The notes under the pieces were generated by a model. That model was not told the DNA's origin. It did no database searches and saw only the letters and a program-made list of their open reading frames with translations. Shown one piece after another: positions 13,598 to 45,483 of a DNA stretch of 64,000 nucleotides; position 1 is the stretch's first letter, and each line of letters opens with the position of its first letter. Made by a program: the position numbers and the translations under genes. The DNA lies in assembly GCA_903936565.1 (NCBI GenBank), contig CAIZVZ010000012.1, forward strand, positions 3,778 to 67,777. The letters run 5' to 3'. The DNA comes from an uncultured bacterium. Lineage in GTDB: Bacteria > Patescibacteriota > Minisyncoccia > Phycocordibacterales > CAIZLB01.

Positions 13598-14161
13598 CTA
13601 ACTTCCTGCAACAAATCTTGCTAGTCGAACCCACCACGGCGGCTGGGTTTGTCTGGTGGTTTCCACGACAATGAAGGAGAGACCGACCCCTGAGGATTCG
13701 TTCTTGTCCATATCTTCCTTAGTTACCCTGATGACGGTATATCCATCGCAGACATCAAAGTGGATAGGTTCAAACTGTTGCCCCTCGTCGCAGAGATTCA
13801 GGTAAATCTCAAGTCGCAACAATTGGCTGATAAGCTTGAACCATTCTTCTTTGGATAAATAAGTTTGGACAAGCCGCTTGATGATCCCCAAAAGGGCAGC
13901 ACAATTGCAGTTACCGGAGCGGCAGGTTGCGATTCGCTGCTCCTCTCTTTTGTTGATCTCGGCTCCCAATCGATTGAGTTCCGTGAGCAAATTATGCCTG
14001 TAGTGATACAAGCGGACAAGTCGATCGAGGTGAGAGAAGGATCCGATGATATCATCTTTGCCCTCCTTAGCTTGTCGGAGATCAAGTGATTTGGGGTCAC
14101 TGATGTCCACCTTAGCCAGTATTGCTTCAAGGCTTTTTGTGTCTGTGCTTTCGTGATTCAT
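13598..14161 (-). CDS. hypothetical protein (GC-enriched cassette gene)
   Basis: 187-aa ORF with clearly higher GC than its neighbours; no recognisable motifs apart from a CRSGNCNC cysteine cluster. Confidence 0.4.
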   Translation of the reverse strand: MNHESTDTKSLEAILAKVDISDPKSLDLRQAKEGKDDIIGSFSHLDRLVRLYHYRHNLLTELNRLGAEINKREEQRIATCRSGNCNCAALLGIIKRLVQTYLSKEEWFKLISQLLRLEIYLNLCDEGQQFEPIHFDVCDGYTVIRVTKEDMDKNESSGVGLSFIVVETTRQTQPPWWVRLARFVAGS

Positions 14162-17300: not shown

Positions 17301-18016
17301 ACCTTGATGATGTTAAATCTGTCGATAAATCTAATAAGCATTCAGAAAAGCAAAAACTAATAAAATGGTTTGAAACAGCCCTTAGAAAAGAGAGGATGTC
17401 ATCAAGGGATTATGAATATTATAGACAAAAGGGAGAAGAGTCACTTTCTGCTTTTTATGATCAAAAGAGCGAGGACTTCACTGGTGACGATTTGTCCGAA
17501 GTTGATTTTAGGAATGAAGGGGTTGTGATTACAGATGAGCAAAATAGAATGGCACACCTAACTGGAAAGATAGATAAAATATTCAAAAATCAAAATCACG
17601 AATATGAAGTTGTGGATTTCAAAACTGGTAAGGCTGAATTTAGCTGGCAGTCGAGTGATGAAGACAAGAAAATTAAATTAAACAACTATAGAAGACAATT
17701 AGTCTTTTATAAGTTATTAATGGAAAACTCGGCGAGATATAAAAATTCAAAGGTTTCCAAAGGGCTGCTTCAGTTCGTTGAACCAATTAAAGAAACTACA
17801 GAGAAGGGGACAATGAAAAATAAAATAATTGGACTTGATTTGGACTTGAAAAATTTAAACGATGAGGAGCTGGGTGATGAGTATGAAAGATTGAAAAAGC
17901 TAGTCTGTATTGTCTATGACAAAATAATGAATTTGGATTTTCCAGATGTTACTTCTTATGACCCAAGTCTTAAGGGAATTAGAGCTTTTGAAGATTGGCT
18001 GTTGGAGGGGAATTAA
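14348..18016 (+). CDS. UvrD/PcrA-family SF1 helicase fused to a C-terminal PD-(D/E)xK (RecB-like) nuclease domain, AddA-like
   Basis: Walker A AGPGSGKT and UvrD motifs (DEFQDTN, VVGDDDQAVYKFQGA, LTRAK); C-terminal ...EVVDFKTG...YRRQLVFYKLL nuclease motifs; start moved from 14267 to 14348 to follow the TGn -10 element. Confidence 0.8.
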   Translation: MNKVNPAQSKFEERYGKLNKQQKKAVDTIDGPLLVVAGPGSGKTEILSLRVAKILKETQVLPSNILCMTFTDAASSNMRDRLSRLIGNEAYRVSIHTFHSFCINIIQKYPEYFYKGIQFTPADSLTQVRILEDIFYGLPQGNTFRDSYHEEKGFSYLSDAKKRIEHLKKSGITPDEFRKIIAHNKRSARRAEKIVVPAFEGRLGKDALELVKNTVAELFKAAELENKEDPFPQENSIFLPILASYANSLQGTHADAIADDGKNTQISTWKTKYLKMRDDGTKTLKEILDEDKMDVLADVYDLYRKKMTSKAFFDFDDMILDAIEAIEKHPRLKFELQEQYQYVLVDEFQDTNNAQMKLVNLILNAPVNEGRPNVMVVGDDDQAVYKFQGAELSNILNFRRMFVDVEIVTMTDNYRSTQDVLDIATHIIRKGSGRLETLYKIEKSLKSLGEGLTNGEIVNKKFRTSLEEYHFISRKIKELIDGGTNPEDIAVIARKHDGLESLVPYLKGVHVPIRYKREQDVFLEPHIMQIIIISRFIASLSRKDAIEADNYLPQILSFPFWQLGRQTVWEISKEAYETRKTWLEVMLEYKGDSIKAPHKVSDIAHFLIDIANKSLHEPLEKVLDIIIGAHVVLVAESEDDFEDDGVGAAGPAVPAGAKAQIASPFKDYYFNKEKFEHSRTEYLSFLSSLRVFIRALRDYVGERALNDDTILSGDLNDVSYHYLTIEDLIKFVDLRQKNHLPLNDESPFASGEKAVNLLSSHGAKGLEFDTVFVLSCQDNIWAGRGVNNKISFPINLPIQPAGDDETDQMRLFYVALTRAKRHLYLTSYKIAETGKESSILRFMLPSNDFDYKKSPAVLEKLYNPEDQSIDDNGPETHELLTASWLLYNTPPFFGEEIELLKIPLKDYKLSVTHLNNFLDVKRGGPQTFLEQNLLRFPQAKTLVSSYGSTIHKAIERLIVSKKIGKDVGELDEEGNIVSFSDSLPDLDDVKSVDKSNKHSEKQKLIKWFETALRKERMSSRDYEYYRQKGEESLSAFYDQKSEDFTGDDLSEVDFRNEGVVITDEQNRMAHLTGKIDKIFKNQNHEYEVVDFKTGKAEFSWQSSDEDKKIKLNNYRRQLVFYKLLMENSARYKNSKVSKGLLQFVEPIKETTEKGTMKNKIIGLDLDLKNLNDEELGDEYERLKKLVCIVYDKIMNLDFPDVTSYDPSLKGIRAFEDWLLEGN

Positions 18017-18094
18017 TTTAGTTAAAAACAAAACCCAAAACTTTTTAAATTTTGGATTTTATTTGCCCGAACATTTATTTAATTGTAGCAAATG

Positions 18095-18781
18095 CTATTT
18101 CACCGAATCAACTGCCTTTTGCAACTCTGATTCCTGAACTGCACCTTGAGTGTAGGTTGAACCCTTTGGTCCGACGAAGATTACAGTAGGGGTTGCATAA
18201 ACACTCAGTCCTTGCGCATCCTTTGCGTCTGATTCAATTGTTGCGGCGTATGCTGGATTGGCAGAATCTGTTTTCAGCTTCGCAACATCCATTCCAAGTG
18301 ACTCTGCGTATTTTATAAAGAAGGGAATATAGTCTACCCCAGTCTTAGACCACTCTTGTTGATTCTTGAAAACTAGGCTTGAATATTCCTTAAACTTCCC
18401 CTGTGCGATAGATGCGTATACTAGCTTGGCTTCTTCTTTTGATTGTGCGTGAATTGGAATAGTTCTGTAAACATATTTGATGGTTGGATTATTCTTCAAT
18501 AGTTTCTCCATTTCAGGTTGTAGAACTGAACATGCAGGACATGCGTAGTCTGCAAATTCAACGATTGTAACTGATGAAGTACTTAAGCTTGAGTCCTTTG
18601 TTAAGGATGCAATACCGTTTTCTATCATCGGACTCCCTGCTTTTATTAGAAGCTCCGGCTTAATAATTGGTTTTGGAATACCTGTTTGACCACCATTTTT
18701 TGCGGAGATATATAGTCCAGCTCCAACTACAATTATAGTCAGAATGGCTACCGCACTTATGAATTTTATTTCGCTCTTCAT
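18095..18781 (-). CDS. DsbA-like thiol:disulfide oxidoreductase, membrane-anchored
   Basis: thioredoxin-fold CPAC active site (ADYACPACSV) and an N-terminal TM helix. Confidence 0.7.
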   Translation of the reverse strand: MKSEIKFISAVAILTIIVVGAGLYISAKNGGQTGIPKPIIKPELLIKAGSPMIENGIASLTKDSSLSTSSVTIVEFADYACPACSVLQPEMEKLLKNNPTIKYVYRTIPIHAQSKEEAKLVYASIAQGKFKEYSSLVFKNQQEWSKTGVDYIPFFIKYAESLGMDVAKLKTDSANPAYAATIESDAKDAQGLSVYATPTVIFVGPKGSTYTQGAVQESELQKAVDSVK

Positions 18782-18945
18782 GTATTTAAATTATTTATTA
18801 ATTATTATGCATATAATAATAACAAAAAAATGGAGGTCAAGCCCCGTTTTTTGCAAAAAAAGTGTGGTCTAATTTTAAGTAACATAGAAGCCCCGCTTGA
18901 AAACGGTGGCGAGGTCACGCGCGGTGGGCGGGGCTTCTCTGGTTT

Positions 18946-19473
18946 TCAGGCGGGGCTTGGGGCGAGATTTGGCTTATAATCCTCCGGTGGAGTTCCCCAC
19001 CAGCGAATATGTCTTCCTCGATCGAGCTTGCTCTTGTCGGTGGGTAAGATCCGTTTAATGAGGTCTTGTAGTGTGTTGTCTCGCACTGCACCATCTAACG
19101 TCATTGTAAACAGATTCGGATCGCCCAATCGCCCTAGGCAGGTAGCATCGTGTCCGTTCGTGGTGAGTACGACAAACGGGGTCGTTTCGCGACCCATAAT
19201 TTCGCGACCCCGTGCATATACTGCTTGTCCAACATGCTTATCGCCTTGAGCAAATTCATGTGCAAATCGACTTTTACCACAGGGTAGGTAGTCGCTTATG
19301 ATGACGATTACATAGCCAGTATCCTTTTTCTCCAAGTGTTGGAGGACTTGGTGTGCGTCGGCACAGATTACCCATTTGGGTGATTGGATAACGCTACCTA
19401 GTGAAGCGAGCGTGCTTGCAAAATACTGTTGGTCTAGTTTTGGGTGTGTTGCTATTAATACTGTTACTTTCAC
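18946..19473 (-). CDS. receiver-like (CheY-fold) hypothetical protein lacking the canonical acid pocket; GC-enriched
   Basis: block-wise similarity to the 19796-20287 product (VLIATHP / ILLAYDK; VIVIISD / DIIIIDG; VVLTTNGH / VMVTTNHS); elevated GC. Confidence 0.4.
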   Translation of the reverse strand: MKVTVLIATHPKLDQQYFASTLASLGSVIQSPKWVICADAHQVLQHLEKKDTGYVIVIISDYLPCGKSRFAHEFAQGDKHVGQAVYARGREIMGRETTPFVVLTTNGHDATCLGRLGDPNLFTMTLDGAVRDNTLQDLIKRILPTDKSKLDRGRHIRWWGTPPEDYKPNLAPSPA

Positions 19474-19795
19474 TGCATCGTTCTTTCTGTGTTAGGGGTT
19501 GTTGATTAGAATTCTTCCGGACTGTCAATAAGTTTCTAGTCCAAGAAAAAGATTACCACGATTTAAAAGACTCTACAACAGTAATGTTTATGGTTAGGTG
19601 ATGTAAAAAGAAGGGTTTATATATAAAATCAGAAACAAAGAGACCCCGATCCAAACGGGGGAAGCGAGGCTCCTTTGGTTTGGGTTTCGGGGTTTAATAG
19701 GTTGTGTTTGTTGGGCGTGGTGAATCTTATTGTTTTGATATTCCTGAGGCGGGGGTTATTCGAGAATCGCCTGGTAAGACGCCATGTTCGGGTTG

Positions 19796-20287
19796 TTAAA
19801 CTCTATTTGCTGGAAAGAAGTGTCTGACGGCTGCAATGATGCTGTCATCCATTGACGCTTCAGCTTTAGTTACCGCCAAATGATGGTCGGAACTTAACGC
19901 AGCTACGGATAAACGAACAAGTTCGCTGTGGTTTGTTGTAACCATGACTACGGGAACTTCTTTCGTTTGATCTTTCCTGCGAACCTGTTTGTAGATGTAC
20001 GCCCCGGTATCTAGGGATTTTCTGGCTCTTGGTGCATATTTGGGGATCCCCTTGTTATCGAGACGTCCATCGATGATGATGATGTCAAAAACAAAACGTC
20101 TCGAATTTACATACCTTAAAACTTTACCCGCGTCTCCACAGGTCGTGACACTAAAGTCAGGCTCTGCTTCGAGTCTGGCTTGGGTGTTTTCTGAATAGAA
20201 TCTGCCAGGCTCTTTGTCGTAAGCAAGCAGTATGTTAATTTTTCTGGGCATTTTCTGACTATTTCTGGTTTGGGAACTGGACCACAT
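19796..20287 (-). CDS. stand-alone response-regulator receiver domain protein; GC-enriched
   Basis: LLAYD...FDIIIIDG...VVMVTTN resembles the CheY D/D/T pattern; elevated GC. Confidence 0.5.
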   Translation of the reverse strand: MWSSSQTRNSQKMPRKINILLAYDKEPGRFYSENTQARLEAEPDFSVTTCGDAGKVLRYVNSRRFVFDIIIIDGRLDNKGIPKYAPRARKSLDTGAYIYKQVRRKDQTKEVPVVMVTTNHSELVRLSVAALSSDHHLAVTKAEASMDDSIIAAVRHFFPANRV

Positions 20288-20307
20288 TAGGAATAATTCC
20301 TAGTCCT

Positions 20308-21657
20308 CTAAAAGCCTATCATGCTTTTGGATGGGGTACAATTGGGTGCTGTACAGGTTGGGTGTATGTAGGGTTCGTGGGTGTGCGGGAGCTGTGGAGT
20401 GTGGTGTTTAATAGGAAACTCCACCTCAAACGCCGTTCCTTTGCCTAATCTACTTTTTACGCTAATCGTACCGTTGAAATATTTTTCTACAATGTGCTTT
20501 GTTGATGATAATCCAATACCGCATCCATGTTCTTCTTTGGTCGTGTAGAATGGTTCAAATATATTTGGAATGATTTCTTCTCTGATTCCGCTTCCATTGT
20601 CTATTGCTTTAATATTTATTTTTTCGCTTTTAATCTTTGTTTTTATCAAAACTATTTTGTTCTTTAGTGGGGTGGGGGATTGTGCTTTGCTTAATCCGAT
20701 ATACAGGTCGGCGGGTGAGACTTGAAGTTGGTAAACATTAGAATTTATTTGTCTGTCTGCATGAGCGTCAATTCCATTTGATAACAGATTCATAATAATA
20801 TGAGAAAAAAGAACCTGCGGGCCATATAATTCCTGTAACTTATTTTTATTTGATAATATTAATTTTACATCACCCTTGATAGCTTTTGATTTTAAAAGTT
20901 CCATTGCTGAAAGTATTTCTTGTTCAATATAGAAGGTGGTACTTAAATCGTTTATCTTAATGTGCTTTCTTGATTGTTGAATGAGATTCTCAATTTTTTT
21001 AATTGAGGGGATTAGCTTCGTCATCGAATCTTTAACTTCTTCAACTTTATGTATTTGTAAATTAAGGGCAATGTTGGTTAAGGGGGTCATTATGTCGTGA
21101 AAAAGTCCAGAAGATATTCTTCCAAATTCGACTAGTCTGTACATGGAGTTTATCTTGTCTATTTGCAGTCTGTTGATTTCATCTGTTCTTTCTTTGACTT
21201 TAATCTCGAGATTATCTTTTTCGAATTGAAGCTTGGATTCGGATTCTCGATATTTTATAAGGGTTTTCTCGAGTTGATTGTTAGATAGCCAAGAAAATAG
21301 GGCTGCGAAGATAAGGAGAGAGGAGTATTCTAGGATGTCGAGAGTATTGAAGTTCGCAGTTTTCCAGTCATAATTTGGTACTATGATGTGATTAGAGTTT
21401 AGGTATTGAAAAAGAAAAAGGTGAAGAATGAGGATGGCGGCGGAGATCAATCCTGCTTTGGAATTTATGAGAATACCTGAAATTATGACTACCACAAATG
21501 ACGTTATAAGTATTGTTGGTAAATCAGCACCCCAATTGATTGAACCATAAAGTATACATCCGTATATTAGAAGTAATATCATCAGGCTGCTGGGTAGTAG
21601 TTTGCCCTGCTTAGTGCTTTTGTTAATATCTTTTTTGTAAATGAATGGTTTGTGCAT
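20308..21657 (-). CDS. sensor histidine kinase
   Basis: N-terminal TM helices; H-box FHDIMTPL; N, G1 and G2 boxes (NLLSNGIDAH, IDNGSGI, GCGIGLS). Confidence 0.85.
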   Translation of the reverse strand: MHKPFIYKKDINKSTKQGKLLPSSLMILLLIYGCILYGSINWGADLPTILITSFVVVIISGILINSKAGLISAAILILHLFLFQYLNSNHIIVPNYDWKTANFNTLDILEYSSLLIFAALFSWLSNNQLEKTLIKYRESESKLQFEKDNLEIKVKERTDEINRLQIDKINSMYRLVEFGRISSGLFHDIMTPLTNIALNLQIHKVEEVKDSMTKLIPSIKKIENLIQQSRKHIKINDLSTTFYIEQEILSAMELLKSKAIKGDVKLILSNKNKLQELYGPQVLFSHIIMNLLSNGIDAHADRQINSNVYQLQVSPADLYIGLSKAQSPTPLKNKIVLIKTKIKSEKINIKAIDNGSGIREEIIPNIFEPFYTTKEEHGCGIGLSSTKHIVEKYFNGTISVKSRLGKGTAFEVEFPIKHHTPQLPHTHEPYIHPTCTAPNCTPSKSMIGF

Positions 21658-21752
21658 TGTTTTTGAATAATGTGTGTGTCTGTCAATTAATTATAGATAA
21701 TTTAGTCATAATTACCAACGTAGTATTTTTAGTAATAAGGCTCAAATCTTTG

Positions 21753-21840
21753 GACTATATCTTCAAAATATAGTCCAAAATTTAACTCTTAGAATTAGAA
21801 TACAAAATCATAAACACGCCGGGAATACTCGACAGTATTC
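21753..21840. promoter_or_regulatory. two perfect palindromes in the RR-HK spacer (candidate operators)
   Basis: tttggactatat-cttcaaa-atatagtccaaa (21753-21783) and ggaatact-cgac-agtattcc (21821-21840); neither has a U-run on the correct side for a terminator. Confidence 0.3.
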
Positions 21841-21961
21841 CGAAAAAAAACATACCACTAAGTGCATAATGCTTCTATAAATATTTTCTAAATAATTTCA
21901 GAAATTTTTATTTAGGTCAAAATATTAAATAGCCAATATGGTATATATAGTATTTATTATA

Positions 21962-22633
21962 CTACTTAGATCGCCCCAGCTTATACCCCCGACCGTTTAT
22001 TGTATGAATAATCCTTTTATCCTTAGACTCAATCTTTTTTCTGAGATTCCTGACGTGCGTTTCAATCGTATTGGTAAAAGGACTCGCGTCTCTATCCCAC
22101 ACTTCCTCTAGTAATTTACTTCTCGTTATAACCTTACCTTCATTCCTGGCAAAGCACCTGAGCAACATGTATTCTCTTCTCGTTAAGTAAACATCCGAGC
22201 CGGCCTTGGTTACTGTTTGACTGCTTGTATTAATCGTCAAATCATCAAGTGTCATGACATCATCAGAAATGTCATATGGTCTTTTGATAAGAGCATTAAC
22301 CCTTGCGATGAGCTCTTCAATATTAAAAGGCTTGGTAATATAATCATCTGCTCCAATATTAAGCATTGCAACCTTATCAGGCACTTCGGATTGAGATGAC
22401 ACAACAAGTATTGGACATGTAATACCTTCACCTCTAATTTCTTTACAAATTGTCACTCCACTTTTGTCTGGCAGTATTAAATCTAACAATATTAATTTGT
22501 ATTTATTAATTCTGGCAATATATGACCCACTTTTGCCATCATGTGCGGTGTCAACGCTGAAGCAATGGGCCTCGAGTGCCTTCTTGATTGTCTGGGCTAA
22601 AAAAATATCATCTTCGATAATAAGTATTTTCAT
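21962..22633 (-). CDS. OmpR-family response regulator (receiver plus winged helix)
   Basis: MKILIIEDD...LLDLILPD...ADDYITKPF receiver motifs; C-terminal LTRREYMLL...NTIETHVRNLRKKI winged helix. Confidence 0.9.
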   Translation of the reverse strand: MKILIIEDDIFLAQTIKKALEAHCFSVDTAHDGKSGSYIARINKYKLILLDLILPDKSGVTICKEIRGEGITCPILVVSSQSEVPDKVAMLNIGADDYITKPFNIEELIARVNALIKRPYDISDDVMTLDDLTINTSSQTVTKAGSDVYLTRREYMLLRCFARNEGKVITRSKLLEEVWDRDASPFTNTIETHVRNLRKKIESKDKRIIHTINGRGYKLGRSK

Positions 22634-22965
22634 TTTTATAAATTAATTTGATAACACTAATATTAAACCATTTTGACCCTAAGCAAAACTTAAAGAAAAA
22701 GTGGGTGATGGGGATAAGTTTGTGGATATCATTTGAGTCCCTTGGCGAGACTTTACTTATCCTTGGTTTGAGGTATAGTTCTGGTGTTATAGTTCCTTTT
22801 AAAAGCGTGATTTTGGGACAACTTGTTTTGCTTTATGACATTGAATTGCGGCCCATCACTTGACTGTATCTTTAAGGGTATTTTTGTACCTTAAAAGATG
22901 CAGTCCAAGCGGGACTGCTGTCTAGAGTAGAGAGTAATAACCATCAACATCACGTAATTGTAATT

Positions 22966-23376
22966 ATGAAGAACAAACTATTGGAAATGGCTATCTTAGC
23001 CAGACATCTCAAGGCAATGTTGGGTGGACATACGATGTCCAATGAGGCTCATGCCACCCAGATGGCGGCTGTAGTCGGCCGACTGTTTGAACAACATGTT
23101 CCTGCGGCCATCAAGATGCACTTCGCCGATCCTGAATCTGCAAACAACGGGTCCTACGATTCGTTTGACAGGACGACGGCTGGTGTTCGTACGCGTGCTT
23201 ATGAGTATCATCATGGTTCCCAGTTATACTTCAACCTGCGTGTGGAAACCGTAGAGGGGGCGATCATGGTCCTCTGTGACGATTCCTTCACGGCAGAAGA
23301 AATTGCTGAGGCTTCACGTTTGCCTCTTGACGCATTGCTTGAGCAGAGTGTCGCTACCACTGCTGGACCAGCCTGA
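22966..23376 (+). CDS. hypothetical protein (GC-enriched cassette gene)
   Basis: 136-aa ORF at about 50% GC, against about 35% in its flanks; no recognisable motifs. Confidence 0.35.
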   Translation: MKNKLLEMAILARHLKAMLGGHTMSNEAHATQMAAVVGRLFEQHVPAAIKMHFADPESANNGSYDSFDRTTAGVRTRAYEYHHGSQLYFNLRVETVEGAIMVLCDDSFTAEEIAEASRLPLDALLEQSVATTAGPA

Positions 23377-23380
23377 AATC

Positions 23381-23430
23381 AACCCGCCCTATGGAGCCCG
23401 CCGCGAGGCACCTCCAAACGGCGGGTTTTC
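23381..23430 (+). terminator. GC-rich hairpin terminator after the GC-enriched ORF
   Basis: aacccgcc...ggcgggtt stem enclosing an inner GC stem, followed by tttcctattaaatatttttt. Confidence 0.4.
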
Positions 23431-23444
23431 CTATTAAATATTTT

Positions 23445-24302
23445 TTATACAATTCCTAGCTTTTCTTTAATTAATTTTAAGGAAGTTGCATACGCAATAC
23501 AAAGTGGAATATTTTTGTCCCAATTCATATTGCCATTGATTATTCCAATCACAGTGTTACTTCCTTCGACAAATAACGGCGCACCGCTATTTCCTCCGAG
23601 GTTGATAGAATTTAATTGAATGTGTTCGTGGACTCCTCCAGCGACAGCTGTTAGAGGCATAGCTGAAACCACAGCTCGATTAACTGAAAAAGGATATTGA
23701 GTTGGATTATCATAGCCACCAGTCATCTGAAATCCGCAGAAGAAAGTAGATTCATCATATTCGGGAGTGTATTTATCGTCGAGTAAAAAGAATGGTGTTC
23801 CGTTTTTCGTAATCTCGCTTTTCTCAAAATCAGCTTTTATAATTTGAAGTATGGCAACATCAAGGTGCTCATCAATTTTTTTGATTTCTGCTATAACTCT
23901 ATTTCCATTTGAAAGTTCAATCTGAAGAGTCATGATGGATTGAGTGATGTAGTTTTGGAATTTTATGTGTTTAGATTCATTATCTATATCCCTGTAGTTT
24001 GAAGTGTTGGAATCAGCTGAAACACTAATACTAGATTCTGATGCGTCCACGAGACTACCGGTGACTCTAAAATCTATTGATTCAAGATTCCGTAGTTCCG
24101 TCCCGGCGATTACATGTGCACAGGTTAGAATTTCTCCATCTTTGCTTATAAAAAAACCGGTGCCTGTGGAGGTGTTTCCATTTCTCATTTGAACTATTAC
24201 TCGAACTAGTCGCTCGCGCTTGTAGGGGACATTGTTTTTTATTTTTCTATCTCCTCCGTTTTGCATATTAATATTTGTATCAGTATTTTGATTTTGTTCC
24301 AT
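23445..24302 (-). CDS. trypsin-like (S1 family) serine protease with no obvious signal peptide
   Basis: TCAHV (His), GNSGAPLF (Ser) and the spacing of a chymotrypsin fold. Confidence 0.65.
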   Translation of the reverse strand: MEQNQNTDTNINMQNGGDRKIKNNVPYKRERLVRVIVQMRNGNTSTGTGFFISKDGEILTCAHVIAGTELRNLESIDFRVTGSLVDASESSISVSADSNTSNYRDIDNESKHIKFQNYITQSIMTLQIELSNGNRVIAEIKKIDEHLDVAILQIIKADFEKSEITKNGTPFFLLDDKYTPEYDESTFFCGFQMTGGYDNPTQYPFSVNRAVVSAMPLTAVAGGVHEHIQLNSINLGGNSGAPLFVEGSNTVIGIINGNMNWDKNIPLCIAYATSLKLIKEKLGIV

Positions 24303-25868: not shown

Positions 25869-26489
25869 TCAGGTCTCTACTGGCTCAACAATACTGAAAA
25901 GGTGAAGGCTTGCTCGCGCAGCTTTTAGGGTTTCTTCTGCTGCTTTCAAGTCATCAGTTGCGTAGATTACATCCGCACTGACTTTACCTTGGCGATTCAC
26001 CAGTAATTTAATGAGTGCTTCATAAGCGTCAATTTGCCGACGCATTTCCTCCAGGTTACTCAAGACTGAGGTAGTAGTCGTTTTCCGCCTCCTTCTTGTC
26101 GTTCGCCAAGTGCACTCGATTGGGTCAATCTTCTCCCAAGCCTCATTAAAGTCTTGGAAAATCTTCCAATGCTTAACGCACTCTTTGTTTGCCTTGCGAA
26201 AGAATGTGACGCCAAGTAGGGTGCCAAGTGAAAAGAAGGACTCAACGGTGACATAACACCGAATCGGCATCGATTGCTTATAGGTGAAGACCGTTACGGC
26301 GGTAGTTATCATTAGTCCCAACAAGGCAAGACTGGCTAGCCATTTAAAGATTTTGGCGGACCTTTCTGCGGATGCTAGGAGCTTTGCTTCTTTCTCAAGG
26401 TTTACGCCAACGTTTCTTTCGTAGGCCGCCACTAGTCCAATGAACATCCGGTTAAGGATTTGTTCGTATCTGTTTCTTTTTGGTTTCAA
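25869..26489 (-). CDS. hypothetical membrane protein
   Basis: two predicted TM helices; Arg/Thr-rich linker. Confidence 0.4.
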   Translation of the reverse strand: MKPKRNRYEQILNRMFIGLVAAYERNVGVNLEKEAKLLASAERSAKIFKWLASLALLGLMITTAVTVFTYKQSMPIRCYVTVESFFSLGTLLGVTFFRKANKECVKHWKIFQDFNEAWEKIDPIECTWRTTRRRRKTTTTSVLSNLEEMRRQIDAYEALIKLLVNRQGKVSADVIYATDDLKAAEETLKAARASLHLFSIVEPVET

Positions 26490-35160: not shown

Positions 35161-35315
35161 GCTTTTGCCCCCTGTACTTATCTGTGCTACTCTATTGTTG
35201 AAAACAGACGCGGAGCATTAGATGGCGTCTAAGAACAAATTTCAAGGCACTTTACCCCTCGCTCTAAGAGGTAAAATTGTTTTGGAAAACAACTGCATTA
35301 GAAACGGAGAATCAA

Positions 35316-35945
35316 ATGATACTTACAAAAAGGGCTTTTAAAGCTGGTGATGCTGATGGAGACGTTGGGGAAATACCAGACTTGAATTTTAACGTGTTTG
35401 AGGGTTCAACTCCTTCAAATCTACTCGCGAGTCTTACTGCACGAGGCGACGTCACCATCATTGGTGATACCCAGGTGTTGGACCGACTGTTGTGGCCGGA
35501 GTACGAATTCCCTGAATTTTCCCACATGGTGTCTGCCTGTTTTGCCAGGGTCGACAATAGTTCACCTTCACTGGCAGATACCGCTAGTTTGTCCTTTTTT
35601 GATAAAATGGACCTGCTAATCGGTGGTCTTAATGTTCAGCTCGGATATGGCGAAAAAGAGTCTCTGTATCTAGCTGGAGACATGGAGGCTGCCACTGTTA
35701 TTTGTTGCTTGGCAAGGAACAAGGATCATGGCTGGGGGCAACTGCCTTCACGTGCACTGATCCGTATCTTTCCAGAGGAGGAGTTTGTTGCTAGCACGGT
35801 TGTAATTTTGACGACCGAGATTCAAAATGATCAATTGGTACTGCGCTTTTTTGAACTCCCCCCTGAGCACGCTGGTTTGCATTATGACGACTGCCGTGTC
35901 TTGCTGACTCGGATGGCTGACGATAGGGATAGTGCACATGAGTGA
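35316..35945 (+). CDS. hypothetical protein (GC-enriched cassette gene)
   Basis: elevated GC; GGAG sits 7 nt before the ATG at 35316; the longer ORF starts at 35277. Confidence 0.35.
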   Translation: MILTKRAFKAGDADGDVGEIPDLNFNVFEGSTPSNLLASLTARGDVTIIGDTQVLDRLLWPEYEFPEFSHMVSACFARVDNSSPSLADTASLSFFDKMDLLIGGLNVQLGYGEKESLYLAGDMEAATVICCLARNKDHGWGQLPSRALIRIFPEEEFVASTVVILTTEIQNDQLVLRFFELPPEHAGLHYDDCRVLLTRMADDRDSAHE

Positions 35946-39292: not shown

Positions 39293-40198
39293 ATGTCAAA
39301 TGTCCTTTTCGGTTTTCTCAACCAAATTCAACTAAACCAACAGAATAAAGAACCAAATCACATGAAAAAACTAGAACGTGAAAGCCCGAGAGGGGCTGGG
39401 CAAAACGGCCCTTGCGACATAGTTCTGGATGATGATCTGGGACTTTGGAGCTGTGAACAACAGGTAATCCATGTGGGGTTAAAACCCGATGGGACACCAA
39501 TGGATATGACCATTTTTGGTCTCGATATGACGCTCATGGATACCGCTTATTCACTTTGGGCGGCGTCTCAGCGGATTGTGGAGGTGTACACTGATAACCT
39601 GAGTCGGATACCCGAACTCTCAGAATTTGAACTCGGTGTACCGAGTTTTGATTTCTATGCTTGGGGGGTACCAAAATACGTTCCACTTAGTCAAGCTTGG
39701 GAAACGTTTGCTGAAATTCTTGCGGGAATTGAAGCGGCTAGACCAAGCGGGCTTTTACCAGGTGTCGCAGAGTGGCTTAAAACTCTGGCGTTGCAGTCTC
39801 ATCTAATCATTGTGACCAACAACAAGACTCCAAGCCTCCCTGAGATTATCAGAGTTCAGGCCGGGGTTGATGTTGATCTGGTTGTGGTGGATGATGACGT
39901 TGCACCGGTTCTCGGAGTTTTGAATAATTCGTACCGTGCTCTCCATGAGTATGGGTGTAAGCTGTTCTACTTTGATAACTCGCTAAGGGAAATACAGGCG
40001 GCAGACGCCTGTGGACCTCCACTTTACCCAGTTGCTGTTGCGTGTAATAAAATTCACGCACCAAGTAACGCCGGGCAAAAGGCGGCGTGGAAGAGGTTGG
40101 CAATTCAAAGCGGGGCACGTGGCATTCTGTCTCCTGGTCAAATCTGCGCGGCCATTTCAGGTGGATATGATTTGAACGGTTCGCTTTCTAGCTGGTAG
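39293..40198 (+). CDS. HAD-superfamily-like protein with a substituted nucleophile; GC-enriched
   Basis: IFGLDMTLMDT resembles HAD motif I, but Gly replaces the first Asp; HLIIVTNN matches motif II; FDNSLREIQAADACG matches motif IV. Confidence 0.4.
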   Translation: MSNVLFGFLNQIQLNQQNKEPNHMKKLERESPRGAGQNGPCDIVLDDDLGLWSCEQQVIHVGLKPDGTPMDMTIFGLDMTLMDTAYSLWAASQRIVEVYTDNLSRIPELSEFELGVPSFDFYAWGVPKYVPLSQAWETFAEILAGIEAARPSGLLPGVAEWLKTLALQSHLIIVTNNKTPSLPEIIRVQAGVDVDLVVVDDDVAPVLGVLNNSYRALHEYGCKLFYFDNSLREIQAADACGPPLYPVAVACNKIHAPSNAGQKAAWKRLAIQSGARGILSPGQICAAISGGYDLNGSLSSW

Positions 40199-40240
40199 GG
40201 CTTAGGCCTGATTCCAGCTTTGGTGGCAGTTCAATTCATT

Positions 40241-40273
40241 GGGGCGCGGCGAGAAATCGCCGCGCCCCTTTTG
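40241..40273 (+). terminator. strong intrinsic terminator (12-bp GC stem plus TTTT)
   Basis: ggggcgcggcga-gaaa-tcgccgcgcccc, then ttttg; lies inside the 5' end of the tracked ORF 40239-41207, which argues that ORF starts later. Confidence 0.55.
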
Positions 40274-40346
40274 CATTGCACTTTTTTGTAAAAGTAGTAT
40301 TCTTTTTTCCAGAAAGGGGGCTTCAAACCAAGGCCCACAGATTTTG

Positions 40347-41207
40347 ATGAATAAAAGATTGAAAGCACAATTTGCTTCACTTATTCACAGAAAAGATGTT
40401 GGCCTCAACATTAGTCTGTGTCGAAATGTGGGGCTGTCCATTCTGGAGGCACAAGAAGTGCAGCCACGCAAAACCCCAGGCGGTTCACCGTTTCCGCTTG
40501 TGGCATGTTCCTTTGACGAACTGTTGGCTCCTACTGCTTCCAACTGCTACAAGGCGCTGGTGCGGTATGCAGCCGATATTGATGATGATTATGACTATGA
40601 TTTGCCGTCGCGATCTGATTTTAGAAATATGAATATCTACGAGAACCGTTCTATTCTACACGGTCTAAACCTTTTAAGGAGAACCCCATACAGCAATGTC
40701 TGGTATTCATATCTTGAATTGCTCCGTGATGTGGAGAATGAGACTCCAACTAGGCTGTATCCATGGGTTGCTGAAACCTTACGGAGAATCATGGAACATT
40801 TCCATCTGGTCATAGTGACTTCAAATCGTACTCATGATGTCGCTCGTATGGTCAGAAACCAAACGGGGATTACGGAACATTTTGACGTTGTGAAAGTACC
40901 AAGAGCCAACAAGGGTTTGGTGCTTGCCACTTTGGCGGGCTATCACAAGACTCATCACGGTGACGGTGTCTGGATTCCCTTCGACTTTTTTTGCCGTTCC
41001 GAACAGGATGTGAGATCAGCCGAGGAGTGTGGTAGGTACGTAAGTACCTATTGTGTTGCGAACCAACATCACTTGAACGGAAATGGTAGTCTCAAGAACT
41101 ATCTCCGCCGGAATAGTGCAACCCACATCACCGCCGATGAAATTCTCTCTACCGTCTATGGCTATCGCCTCCACAGCTTGGGGTATGGACAAGACAAATG
41201 TTCCTAG
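40347..41207 (+). CDS. HAD-like paralog of the 39293 product, more degenerate; GC-enriched
   Basis: aligns with the upstream gene (L.P.VAE.L...HL.IVT.N.T, F..S...A..CG, LNG.GSL); start moved to MNKRLKAQ because the 40239 start overlaps the terminator hairpin. Confidence 0.35.
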   Translation: MNKRLKAQFASLIHRKDVGLNISLCRNVGLSILEAQEVQPRKTPGGSPFPLVACSFDELLAPTASNCYKALVRYAADIDDDYDYDLPSRSDFRNMNIYENRSILHGLNLLRRTPYSNVWYSYLELLRDVENETPTRLYPWVAETLRRIMEHFHLVIVTSNRTHDVARMVRNQTGITEHFDVVKVPRANKGLVLATLAGYHKTHHGDGVWIPFDFFCRSEQDVRSAEECGRYVSTYCVANQHHLNGNGSLKNYLRRNSATHITADEILSTVYGYRLHSLGYGQDKCS

Positions 41208-41376: not shown

Positions 41377-41778
41377 ATGAAATACAGACTGATAGATACA
41401 CAAAGGGTAATCGTTCGTTGCACGGCAGAAGAAGGTATTGTGGCACTCTCGTATTCCGCAAGGGATCTTGTGTCCTACAATGATGAGCGTCCTGAATGGA
41501 GGGACGTTAGCATAACTAGGGATGAATTTGTGGCAATACTTCAGAATTGTCCCTATGCACATAACATGGTCCCGTCCACAGTTTTGTGGGATTGGGTGCA
41601 GAATAAAACCGCACCTGTTTTCCTTCAAACCGGGGATTGGTTCATATCAACTCTCCTGGAGGATCCCGCCACTTCAATGTGGTGCCTTCATGGGAAATTA
41701 TACATATCCAGCGTTGGCCCACTGCCAGGTCACGTTGAAATAGGTAAGAGATTCGAGTTTGTTCTCGCCTATGCCTAA
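41377..41778 (+). CDS. hypothetical protein (moderately GC-enriched)
   Basis: 133-aa ORF at about 46% GC, followed by the GC hairpin at 41803-41832. Confidence 0.35.
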   Translation: MKYRLIDTQRVIVRCTAEEGIVALSYSARDLVSYNDERPEWRDVSITRDEFVAILQNCPYAHNMVPSTVLWDWVQNKTAPVFLQTGDWFISTLLEDPATSMWCLHGKLYISSVGPLPGHVEIGKRFEFVLAYA

Positions 41779-43251: not shown

Positions 43252-43686
43252 ATGAGGACAATGTTAAAGAAATTGATGACGGCAGGTGTTTTGCCTGGAA
43301 CAAAAAAACGCAACAAAAAAGTTAGTGGGGCAATATCGGTTTACATTCCTAATCTCTCCGCCCTTCTCGGGGACGTTGAAGATGCTGGGTACTTTGAAAG
43401 GGTAGATCTCCTTGTAGAGACTTTGAAGGAGGCGGATGCTAAAAACCAGTGGCGGGATCCAGATCCTGGGTCATTCCATTTTATATCTGCTGCCTTATCC
43501 AAGGAGGATAATCGTATCATCCTCTACTTCCGCCCGGATGACCCACTTGTGACGAGTGGTCAAACGCACGCCTACCAGAAGTATGTCGAAAGAGTCTGCT
43601 CTGTGATGGATAAGATGCTTTCAAGAAGTATCAATGGTGTTTTCAGGATGACCCTTACACCATCAGTCACTATCGGGCCTGTCTAA
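43252..43686 (+). CDS. hypothetical protein (GC-enriched cassette gene)
   Basis: 144-aa ORF with elevated GC, followed by a strong terminator. Confidence 0.35.
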   Translation: MRTMLKKLMTAGVLPGTKKRNKKVSGAISVYIPNLSALLGDVEDAGYFERVDLLVETLKEADAKNQWRDPDPGSFHFISAALSKEDNRIILYFRPDDPLVTSGQTHAYQKYVERVCSVMDKMLSRSINGVFRMTLTPSVTIGPV

Positions 43687-45060: not shown

Positions 45061-45483
45061 GTGAAAAATATCGTTGTTAGGTGTATCCAGTTCATTGCAT
45101 TATTTGCATCGGTCTTTTCGATCGTATTGCTGATTATGGCGTCGCTGGTTGGGGTTGAGGTTGATAAGATGAATTATTGTAGCCAGATCTATTTTAAGTC
45201 GGCCTGCATAATTCCATTTGTCAGCCTTGTTGTCTTGTCAGTGATGCGTATCATGAGAGAAAGGAAGTACATGCTCGATCATGTCCGCGGTATCTACAAC
45301 ACTTTCATTCATGTACTCATGTGTATTGAGATTTCATTGACTTTGACGGCGTCCATCTTCTCCGTGGCATACCTTTCGATCACTCCAATGTACTCCTACA
45401 TTACAAGGGACATGATTTTGGGGCTGGTAGGATGGTTGCTGCTTTTGCGAGGTTTTACCTCTGTGTTTTGGCAACGGAAATAG
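45061..45483 (+). CDS. hypothetical small membrane protein
   Basis: four predicted TM helices. Confidence 0.4.
   Translation: MKNIVVRCIQFIALFASVFSIVLLIMASLVGVEVDKMNYCSQIYFKSACIIPFVSLVVLSVMRIMRERKYMLDHVRGIYNTFIHVLMCIEISLTLTASIFSVAYLSITPMYSYITRDMILGLVGWLLLLRGFTSVFWQRK

Follow-up and report, generated by a model that had tools for sequence, protein, structure and literature searches.

Single-domain response regulators such as CheY1 of Sinorhizobium meliloti and DivK of Caulobacter, which act as phosphate sinks or kinase modulators, and pseudo-receiver domains are among the described systems closest to the locus reported here. Pseudo-receivers, defined as recognizable receivers that miss at least one of the five catalytic residues, are common, act by largely unknown mechanisms, and typically carry a residue other than Ala or Gly, for example Thr, at position T+1 (PMC12632262). 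Binding of diverse partners is a common mode of action of single-domain regulators (PMC12802240, PMC5964349). We analyzed two small genes, REC1 and REC2, in a 64-kb stretch of DNA from an uncultured bacterium (contig CAIZVZ010000012.1, positions 3,778 to 67,777; the whole stretch of 64,000 nucleotides is called the window), in which the minus-strand gene order is OmpR-type regulator, histidine kinase, REC2, REC1, and dsbA. Our results make it probable, on balance, that REC1 and REC2 belong to a tandem array that is native to the lineage, specific to it, and made up of degenerate, stand-alone CheY-like genes, which would modulate the adjacent kinase/regulator pair, mostly without being phosphorylated. 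In a clade of freshwater Saccharibacteria, this array occupies the interval from the gene for the histidine kinase to dsbA.

Receiver homology and catalytic residues of REC1 and REC2

REC1 (18946-19473, minus strand) encodes a stand-alone pseudo-receiver of 175 amino acids, and REC2 (19796-20251, minus strand) a stand-alone CheY-like protein of 151 amino acids. An earlier reading of the window, here called the original prediction, had described the two products as paralogous, receiver-like proteins next to a classical kinase/OmpR pair; this observation is confirmed, and the interpretation placed on it is partly supported. REC1 and REC2 are 23% identical over 151 amino acids by BLASTP (E = 2e-6), and Pfam matches identify both neighbors. 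REC2 matched the Pfam Response_reg profile (PF00072) with an E-value of 8.6e-5 at 23.1-23.5 bits, short of the gathering cut-off of 30.2 bits, and REC1 had no Pfam match; this is the outcome of the profile search that the original prediction had proposed. Searches of PDB sequences with REC1 and REC2 also gave no significant match, and for these reasons single-sequence evidence alone makes a weak case for receiver identity.

Profile and structure comparisons were more informative. Eight of 15 family members individually matched Response_reg, all below threshold, and hhalign aligned a 15-member family profile with a small receiver profile, built from CheY, Spo0F, PhoB, and the window's own regulator, at a probability of 95.3% (E = 2.2e-8; 117 aligned columns). 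AlphaFold2 (AF2) models of the two proteins (pTM 0.62 and 0.67) both adopt a (beta-alpha)5 fold with five strands alternating with helices. When the REC2 model was submitted to Foldseek, nearly all top matches were receiver domains (for example PorX, RcpA, Spo0A, and PmrA; E ~1e-4; TM 0.5-0.77), and the REC1 model gave less specific matches to generic flavodoxin-like folds, including many receivers, at E-values of at least 1.2e-3. Taken together, the hhalign alignment, the sub-threshold Response_reg matches of family members, and the AF2/Foldseek folds settle the receiver identity of REC1 and REC2.

We regard the family as new and highly divergent, but of a known type. Word-indexed protein searches with REC1 or REC2 returned nothing beyond the query proteins, the same type of search with the 15-member alignment returned four proteins only, and NCBIfam, PADLOC, and PHROGs contained nothing for either protein. 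An exhaustive search with a two-sequence profile gave 13 matches, ~9 of them real, among 1.84 billion representative proteins, and recovered the family from this clade only. As a negative control, we ran a family hidden Markov model over 80 loci recovered by a scan with the OmpR-type regulator, mostly generic OmpR proteins of 33-44% identity, and obtained weak matches to canonical OmpR receivers and no true family member. Family-specific motifs include YS(D/E)P in alpha1, where a longer pattern, YS(D/E)P...RL, is conserved, DPNL before beta5, and FFP at the C-terminus; the hhalign mapping also places an insertion of ~13 residues after beta3 in REC2. The C-terminal tail of REC1 is predicted by AF2 to be disordered and carries a WWG motif. 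A W-G motif is found 5-20 residues past the FFP motif in REC1 (residues ~145-175, window 18946-19040) and in three relatives, P0003, P0004, and P0007, as the variants RWWGTPP, DGWGKK, NWGEPL, and REWGRR, in a tail that AF2 models as disordered; it may be a docking motif.

In the hhalign mapping of REC2, Y11-D12 aligns with CheY D12-D13, D61 with D57, T105 with T87, and K129 with K109, so four of the five residues (D12, D61, T105, and K129) are kept and the first acidic residue is missing. In REC1, T9-H10 occupies the D12-D13 positions and S60 the D57 position, with D61 as the next residue; T104 is present, and the conserved Lys is missing. The acidic pocket is thus absent from REC1, as had been claimed, and in the alignment to CheY that had been suggested as a check REC1 is without the acidic pair, the D57-position Asp, and the Lys. 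The T+1 residue is Thr, not Ala or Gly. Judged by the catalytic residues, REC1 and REC2 both classify as pseudo-receivers under the strict definition (PMC12632262), and REC1 also as an aspartate-less receiver (ALR), although D61 follows directly after the D57 position; the original prediction was right to call REC1 a pseudo-receiver, but not in allowing only one.

This degeneracy extends across the family. Sixteen members could be scored at every one of the five positions, and not one of them shows a complete DD-D-T-K quintet; the Asp at the D57 position is missing in 6 of 17 members, and only REC2, P0003, and P0005 among these 17 retain D13, D57, T, and K together. The kinase-proximal genes of two sister species, L009 (H-N/D/T/M) and L012 (S-R/D/T/L), both lack the D13 equivalent and the Lys, and an intact phospho-acceptor site is therefore not conserved in the genes equivalent to REC2. 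The absence of a full quintet from every scorable member argues against a conserved phosphate-sink role, and the suggestion that the arrangement serves as such a sink is weakened to the point of being unlikely as a shared function; a role as decoy or modulator may still apply.

Array units in the window and in sister species

Sister species were recovered by a scan with the neighboring helicase. Compared to the window, the L009 proteins are 89% (helicase), 97% (regulator), 82% (kinase), and 89% (DsbA) identical, and L009 and L012 each contain two receiver-like open reading frames (ORFs) in the interval from dsbA to the kinase gene. The window derives from a member of the Saccharibacteria living in freshwater lakes. 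Among public loci, those nearest to it belong to lake metagenome bins, and those at greater distance bear the label Candidatus Saccharibacteria. Family members lie beside a regulator/kinase pair in seven of the nine contexts with neighbors (the window, L009, L012, L018, the contigs of P0015 and P0004, and L024). In L018, the regulator and kinase genes are followed by a single cassette, P0003; in the P0015 contig, by an opposite-strand ORF of 155 amino acids, P0015, and a second family member; and in the P0004 contig, by four small ORFs. The L024 contig (1-5200), in which the kinase gene is represented by its 3' end only, continues with P0013, a frameshifted copy (1956-2420), P0006, P0007, and dsbA. 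Across species, the cassette copy number ranges from 1 to 4, and open frames of 150-200 amino acids are retained in every species examined. The gene after P0003 in L018 (4449-4823) encodes a type IV prepilin-like N-terminus (FTLIEILVVISIIALL). A second variable slot lies nearby: the helicase-dsbA spacer is 78 bp in the window (18017-18094) versus 0.4-0.8 kb of unrelated sequence with small ORFs in relatives (L009 13891-14447, L012 13847-14239, and L011 7172-7744).

In each unit of the array, a highly divergent coding part is preceded by a promoter-like leader and followed by a terminator hairpin, both of them conserved. Nine cassette leaders from the window, L009, L024, and L021 align around a core of TTGTAC, a 17-nt spacer, and TG-n-TAGGCT, followed by an AGAAAGA-type ribosome-binding region. 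On the minus strand of the window, the REC2 leader motif (20313-20341) reads TTGTAC, 17 nt, TAGGCT, with TG before the -10 element, in the exact form TTGTA-N13-CRTGRTARKCT, and the REC1 leader motif (19550-19578) reads TTGTAG, 17 nt, TAATCT, again with TG before the -10 element. Within the 64 kb, the motif occurs only before REC1 and REC2, even with two mismatches allowed; it also precedes the L009 gene L009_a and all four L024 units. The REC1 leader is conserved in L009 as far as the start codon, a GTG in REC1 aligned with an ATG in its L009 counterpart. The coordinates originally given for REC1 stand. REC2 had been listed as 19796-20287, and alignment of its leader with those of seven other cassettes, together with the public gene call, moves its start to 20251; the ATG at 20287 was rejected because it sits inside the leader conserved in other cassettes, upstream of the start aligned there.

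Downstream of the coding parts, a terminator-like hairpin follows REC2 (19643-19693, minus strand, with a U-rich tail to ~19625; -24.1 kcal/mol), and a long 3' hairpin with an 11-bp G+C-rich stem follows REC1 (18886-18938, minus strand; -29 kcal/mol). Their stabilities relative to shuffled sequence (z = -2.95 and -4.1, respectively) agree with the claim that each gene has its own hairpin. The REC1 hairpin is nearly identical in L009 and homologous to hairpins of other cassettes, and the REC2 terminator block is ~85% conserved in L009 and L024. RNAalifold gave a 10-pair stem for the terminators, with one compensatory pair only, and no consensus structure for the nine leaders, and we therefore make no claim for a 5' RNA element; a search of 18000-23500 against Rfam returned one sub-threshold chance match only.

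The L024 array shows the same organization in four units with a period of 1.12-1.22 kb. The 178-nt leaders of these units are 68-89% identical and a 66-nt hairpin that follows two of the four is 95% identical, whereas the coding parts are 17-23% identical between units, one of which is frameshifted. In L021, the contig that carries P0005, the 5' end matches the REC1 leader and the REC1-type leader is followed by a different cassette, P0005.

We observed the same pattern between species. At the DNA level, the window and L009 are 82.6% identical over dsbA and the REC1 3' hairpin, 72-85% over the REC2-REC1 spacer, and 81% over the kinase gene, whereas the coding bodies of REC1 and REC2 do not align at all. 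The break points lie at most a few bases away from the start and stop codons of REC1, and a further one falls on the stop codon of the L009 kinase. In sister species, cassettes that occupy one slot share ~25% protein identity. For the flanking genes, synonymous divergence (dS) between the window and L009 is 0.36-0.98, and the ratio of nonsynonymous to synonymous divergence (dN/dS) is 0.02-0.14, with 0.02 for the regulator; for the REC pairs, dN is 0.77-0.87 and the proportion of synonymous differences (pS) is saturated at 0.70-0.77. Where two proteins agree in an amino acid, their genes also agree in the codon in 62-74% of cases for the flanks and 28-48% for the REC pairs. In two closer family pairs (63% and 58% amino-acid identity), the proportion of nonsynonymous differences (pN) is 0.21-0.25 compared to a pS of 0.75, indicating that these are constrained coding genes. 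Positive selection acting in place would not lift synonymous divergence, and thus the cassettes found in one slot are old paralogues, replaced alleles, or faster-mutating DNA. In-situ hypermutation was rejected, because in this region the window agrees with eight contigs of other samples at 99.99-100% identity.

REC1 and REC2 have GC contents of 0.489 and 0.445, compared to 0.356 for the kinase gene, 0.381 for the regulator gene, and 0.375 for the whole window, so both are GC-richer than the adjacent pair, as had been stated. Because ~11 further small ORFs in the window match them in GC-richness, their composition is raised but not unique. Cassettes of L009, L012, L024, and L025 have GC contents of 0.43-0.50; for comparison, the values in L009 and L012 are 0.29-0.38 for the genes of the kinase and the regulator. 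Within the 11-27 kb interval comparable with L009, all species-specific segments of these 16 kb are GC-rich (0.451 versus 0.367 for alignable DNA).

Other variable segments lie around the array. Three that do not align with L009 (13452-14329, 22735-23375, and 25779-26699; GC 0.43-0.48) carry small ORFs (13598-14161, 22966-23376, and 25869-26489) without a family match; two of these segments are absent from L009, leaving a gap of ~100 bp, and one is replaced by an unrelated ORF of 111 amino acids. Further GC-rich small ORFs without a Pfam match are found at 35277-35945, 41377-41778, 43252-43686, and 45061-45483. Two adjacent ORFs, 39293-40198 (GC 0.48) and 40239-41207 (GC 0.465), both give weak, sub-threshold matches to HAD-type hydrolases and may be another pair of divergent tandem paralogues.

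The neighboring genes are conventional and lie on the minus strand. The regulator gene (21962-22633) encodes a canonical receiver and winged helix (Pfam Response_reg, 1.2e-25; Trans_reg_C, 3.9e-25), the membrane histidine kinase gene (20308-21657) has matches to HATPase_c (4.8e-18), weakly to HisKA (0.01), and to many NCBIfam kinase models, and a DsbA-like gene occupies 18095-18781. Similarity of the kinase to its L009 counterpart stops exactly at the L009 stop codon, and that stop is lost in the window; the last ~33 codons (20308-20410, HHTPQLPHTHEPYIHPTCTAPNCTPSKSMIGF) are a species-specific extension into the REC2 leader, and translation of the kinase therefore overlaps the promoter-like leader of REC2.

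Proposed function and alternative explanations

In the mechanism that we propose, REC proteins would dock on the neighboring kinase or its regulator and tune signaling. That the genes keep their place beside a single kinase/regulator pair speaks for a functional link, and the loss of catalytic residues throughout the family suggests that whatever function its members share is independent of phosphorylation. REC2, having kept D12, D61, T105, and K129, could still be phosphorylated by the kinase; REC1 presumably cannot be phosphorylated and would act without it. The alpha1 region of receivers contacts the kinase, and the conserved alpha1 motif of the family is consistent with docking on a common partner. 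The array itself would evolve by birth and death, as old paralogues are gained, lost, and exchanged while the proteins also change fast. The probable route of this turnover is recombination between the conserved repeats that form the leaders and terminators.

Several observations count against a native array of kinase modulators. Docking on the kinase is deduced from gene neighborhood alone. Each gene has its own promoter-like element and terminator, and co-transcription with the kinase is thus not required. No kinase gene is seen on the short contigs of P0009 and P0010. The AF2 models are of moderate confidence (pLDDT 60-65) because the input alignment held two sequences, and dS values computed on alignments of 25% identity are rough estimates. 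As the leader motif was derived from sites in which it was later found, the independent part of its support is limited to the lack of further occurrences in the window. Finally, the GC content of all cassettes, overall and at third codon positions, is well above that of core genes despite saturated synonymous sites, and an array model alone does not account for this persistence; possible sources are GC-biased gene conversion where loci recombine and the import of DNA from a gene pool of higher GC.

The locus might also instantiate something broader, an undescribed signaling-gene cassette array in which homogenized promoter and terminator repeats serve as recombination handles for swapping, adding, and deleting extremely divergent pseudo-receivers, giving lineage-specific sets of modulators for one conserved two-component system. 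The locus would then be a module that diversifies intracellular signaling, perhaps linked to hosts or phages. We regard this as a speculative extension with a rather small chance of being correct. A literature search found no description of a cassette-array organization with hyperdivergent coding parts, and such an organization is unusual. In a reduced symbiont genome, one to four pseudo-receivers stand beside one conserved kinase/regulator pair, with expression signals kept and proteins diverged almost beyond recognition. If the cassettes tune the kinase, they would constitute a natural variant series for studying how degenerate receivers act, and a conserved non-coding scaffold with a hypervariable coding insert and raised GC would exemplify recombination-driven turnover of signaling genes in candidate-phyla-radiation bacteria.

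Among the alternatives, one that we consider unlikely, while giving it some weight, is that the locus diversifies through conflict, with diversifying or frequency-dependent selection on cassettes that serve, for example, as targets or decoys in encounters with phages or with the bacterium that hosts this episymbiont, and with leader and terminator repeats through which alleles are shuffled within and between populations. Such a history would fit the confinement of divergence to coding parts between conserved flanks, both within the L024 array and between species, the placement of P0005 behind a REC1-type leader, the greater divergence of synonymous sites than in the flanks, and the GC-richness of species-specific segments, which would be compatible with GC-biased gene conversion. 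However, dN/dS is below 1 wherever it could be estimated, the eight contigs of this population do not vary, searches gave no defense-system or phage profile matches, and cytoplasmic receiver-like proteins are not obvious targets in a conflict.

The cassettes could instead be output genes of the two-component system, activated by the OmpR-type regulator through their shared leader, with targets that would have nothing to do with the kinase, for example type IV pili or the envelope, an explanation that we consider rather doubtful. The same promoter-like leader precedes every cassette, and an inverted repeat, TGGACTA...AGTCC, lies just downstream of the REC1 -10 element (19519-19543, minus strand) as a possible operator. 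A repeat search also recovered a near-perfect palindrome of 31 nt in the regulator-kinase spacer (21749-21779; TTTGGACTATAT...ATATAGTCCAAA). The pattern TGGACTA-N(3-30)-AGTCC occurs in the 64 kb only in these two places (3 matches versus 0.16 expected), and both repeats are conserved in L009, which suggests a putative shared operator and hints that REC1 and the regulator-kinase spacer may be regulated in common. OmpR-family proteins usually bind direct repeats, however, and the shared repeat is inverted. The pilin-like gene that follows the single cassette of L018 and the diverse partners of single-domain regulators (PMC12802240, PMC5964349) also accord with an output role, but no target can be named, and sequence data alone cannot separate output genes from modulators of the kinase.

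The original prediction had viewed REC1 and REC2 as a recently acquired, GC-rich foreign insert of single-domain receivers, one acting as a phosphate sink and the other as a pseudo-receiver decoy. The GC contrast with the kinase and regulator genes and the lack of DNA similarity between the coding parts and L009 speak for acquisition, and the four catalytic residues retained by REC2 for a sink. Nonetheless, the insert part of this explanation is largely refuted: the same family occupies the same slot in L009, L012, L024, and further contigs, GC-rich wherever measured, the leaders and terminators on either side are native DNA that has been conserved, the exhaustive search recovered the family from no other clade, and no mobility genes were seen in the flanks. 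In the comparison with relatives that had been proposed as a check, family members fill the slot and the GC of their cassettes is raised as well, both of which speak against an insert. A sink is countered by the kinase-proximal members of L009 and L012 and by the incomplete quintets of all scorable members. We therefore judge the explanation as a whole improbable, and it offers a caution for similar scans: an ORFan that is GC-rich among AT-rich core genes has not necessarily been acquired recently from elsewhere.

That the REC ORFs are decaying remnants or spurious and functionless is very improbable, for although they have almost no database relatives, REC1 has no profile match, and one L024 unit is frameshifted, all species examined retain the open frames, the closer pairs show a pN much lower than their pS, the fold predictions are coherent, and neutral decay would have left coding DNA as similar as the spacer, when it is less similar.

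Comparison with known systems

Like integron cassette arrays, the REC locus consists of tandem small ORFs in the same orientation, each followed by a hairpin-forming repeat, with content that varies among relatives and a non-host composition. Unlike integron cassettes, the REC hairpins are without an R''/R' (GTTRRRY) core, each unit has its own leader, and all units belong to one protein family. We rejected an integron gene cassette because no GTTRRRY core was present in the inspected hairpins and no integrase was found among the called genes of the 16-kb neighborhood. A target of a diversity-generating retroelement was also rejected: the coding parts contain no long direct repeat (18700-20600), no further family copy exists at a second site anywhere else in the 64-kb window, and the population is invariant.

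CheY1/DivK-type regulators resemble the REC proteins in being small, receiver-only proteins beside a kinase that also serves a DNA-binding regulator, and REC2 shares their Asp, Thr, and Lys. Those regulators, however, have an intact quintet and a conserved sequence, whereas the REC quintet is incomplete in all scorable members and the proteins are ~25% identical between sister species.

Pseudo-receiver and ALR domains (PMC12632262, PMC4395418) are like the REC proteins in their missing residues, the acidic pair, the D57-position Asp, and the Lys in REC1 and the first acidic residue in REC2, and in the Thr found at T+1. Compared to these domains, members of the REC family are stand-alone, too divergent to reach the Pfam threshold, and marked by an insertion of ~13 residues and by motifs of their own, and they are encoded in a tandem array that varies in copy number between conserved non-coding flanks.

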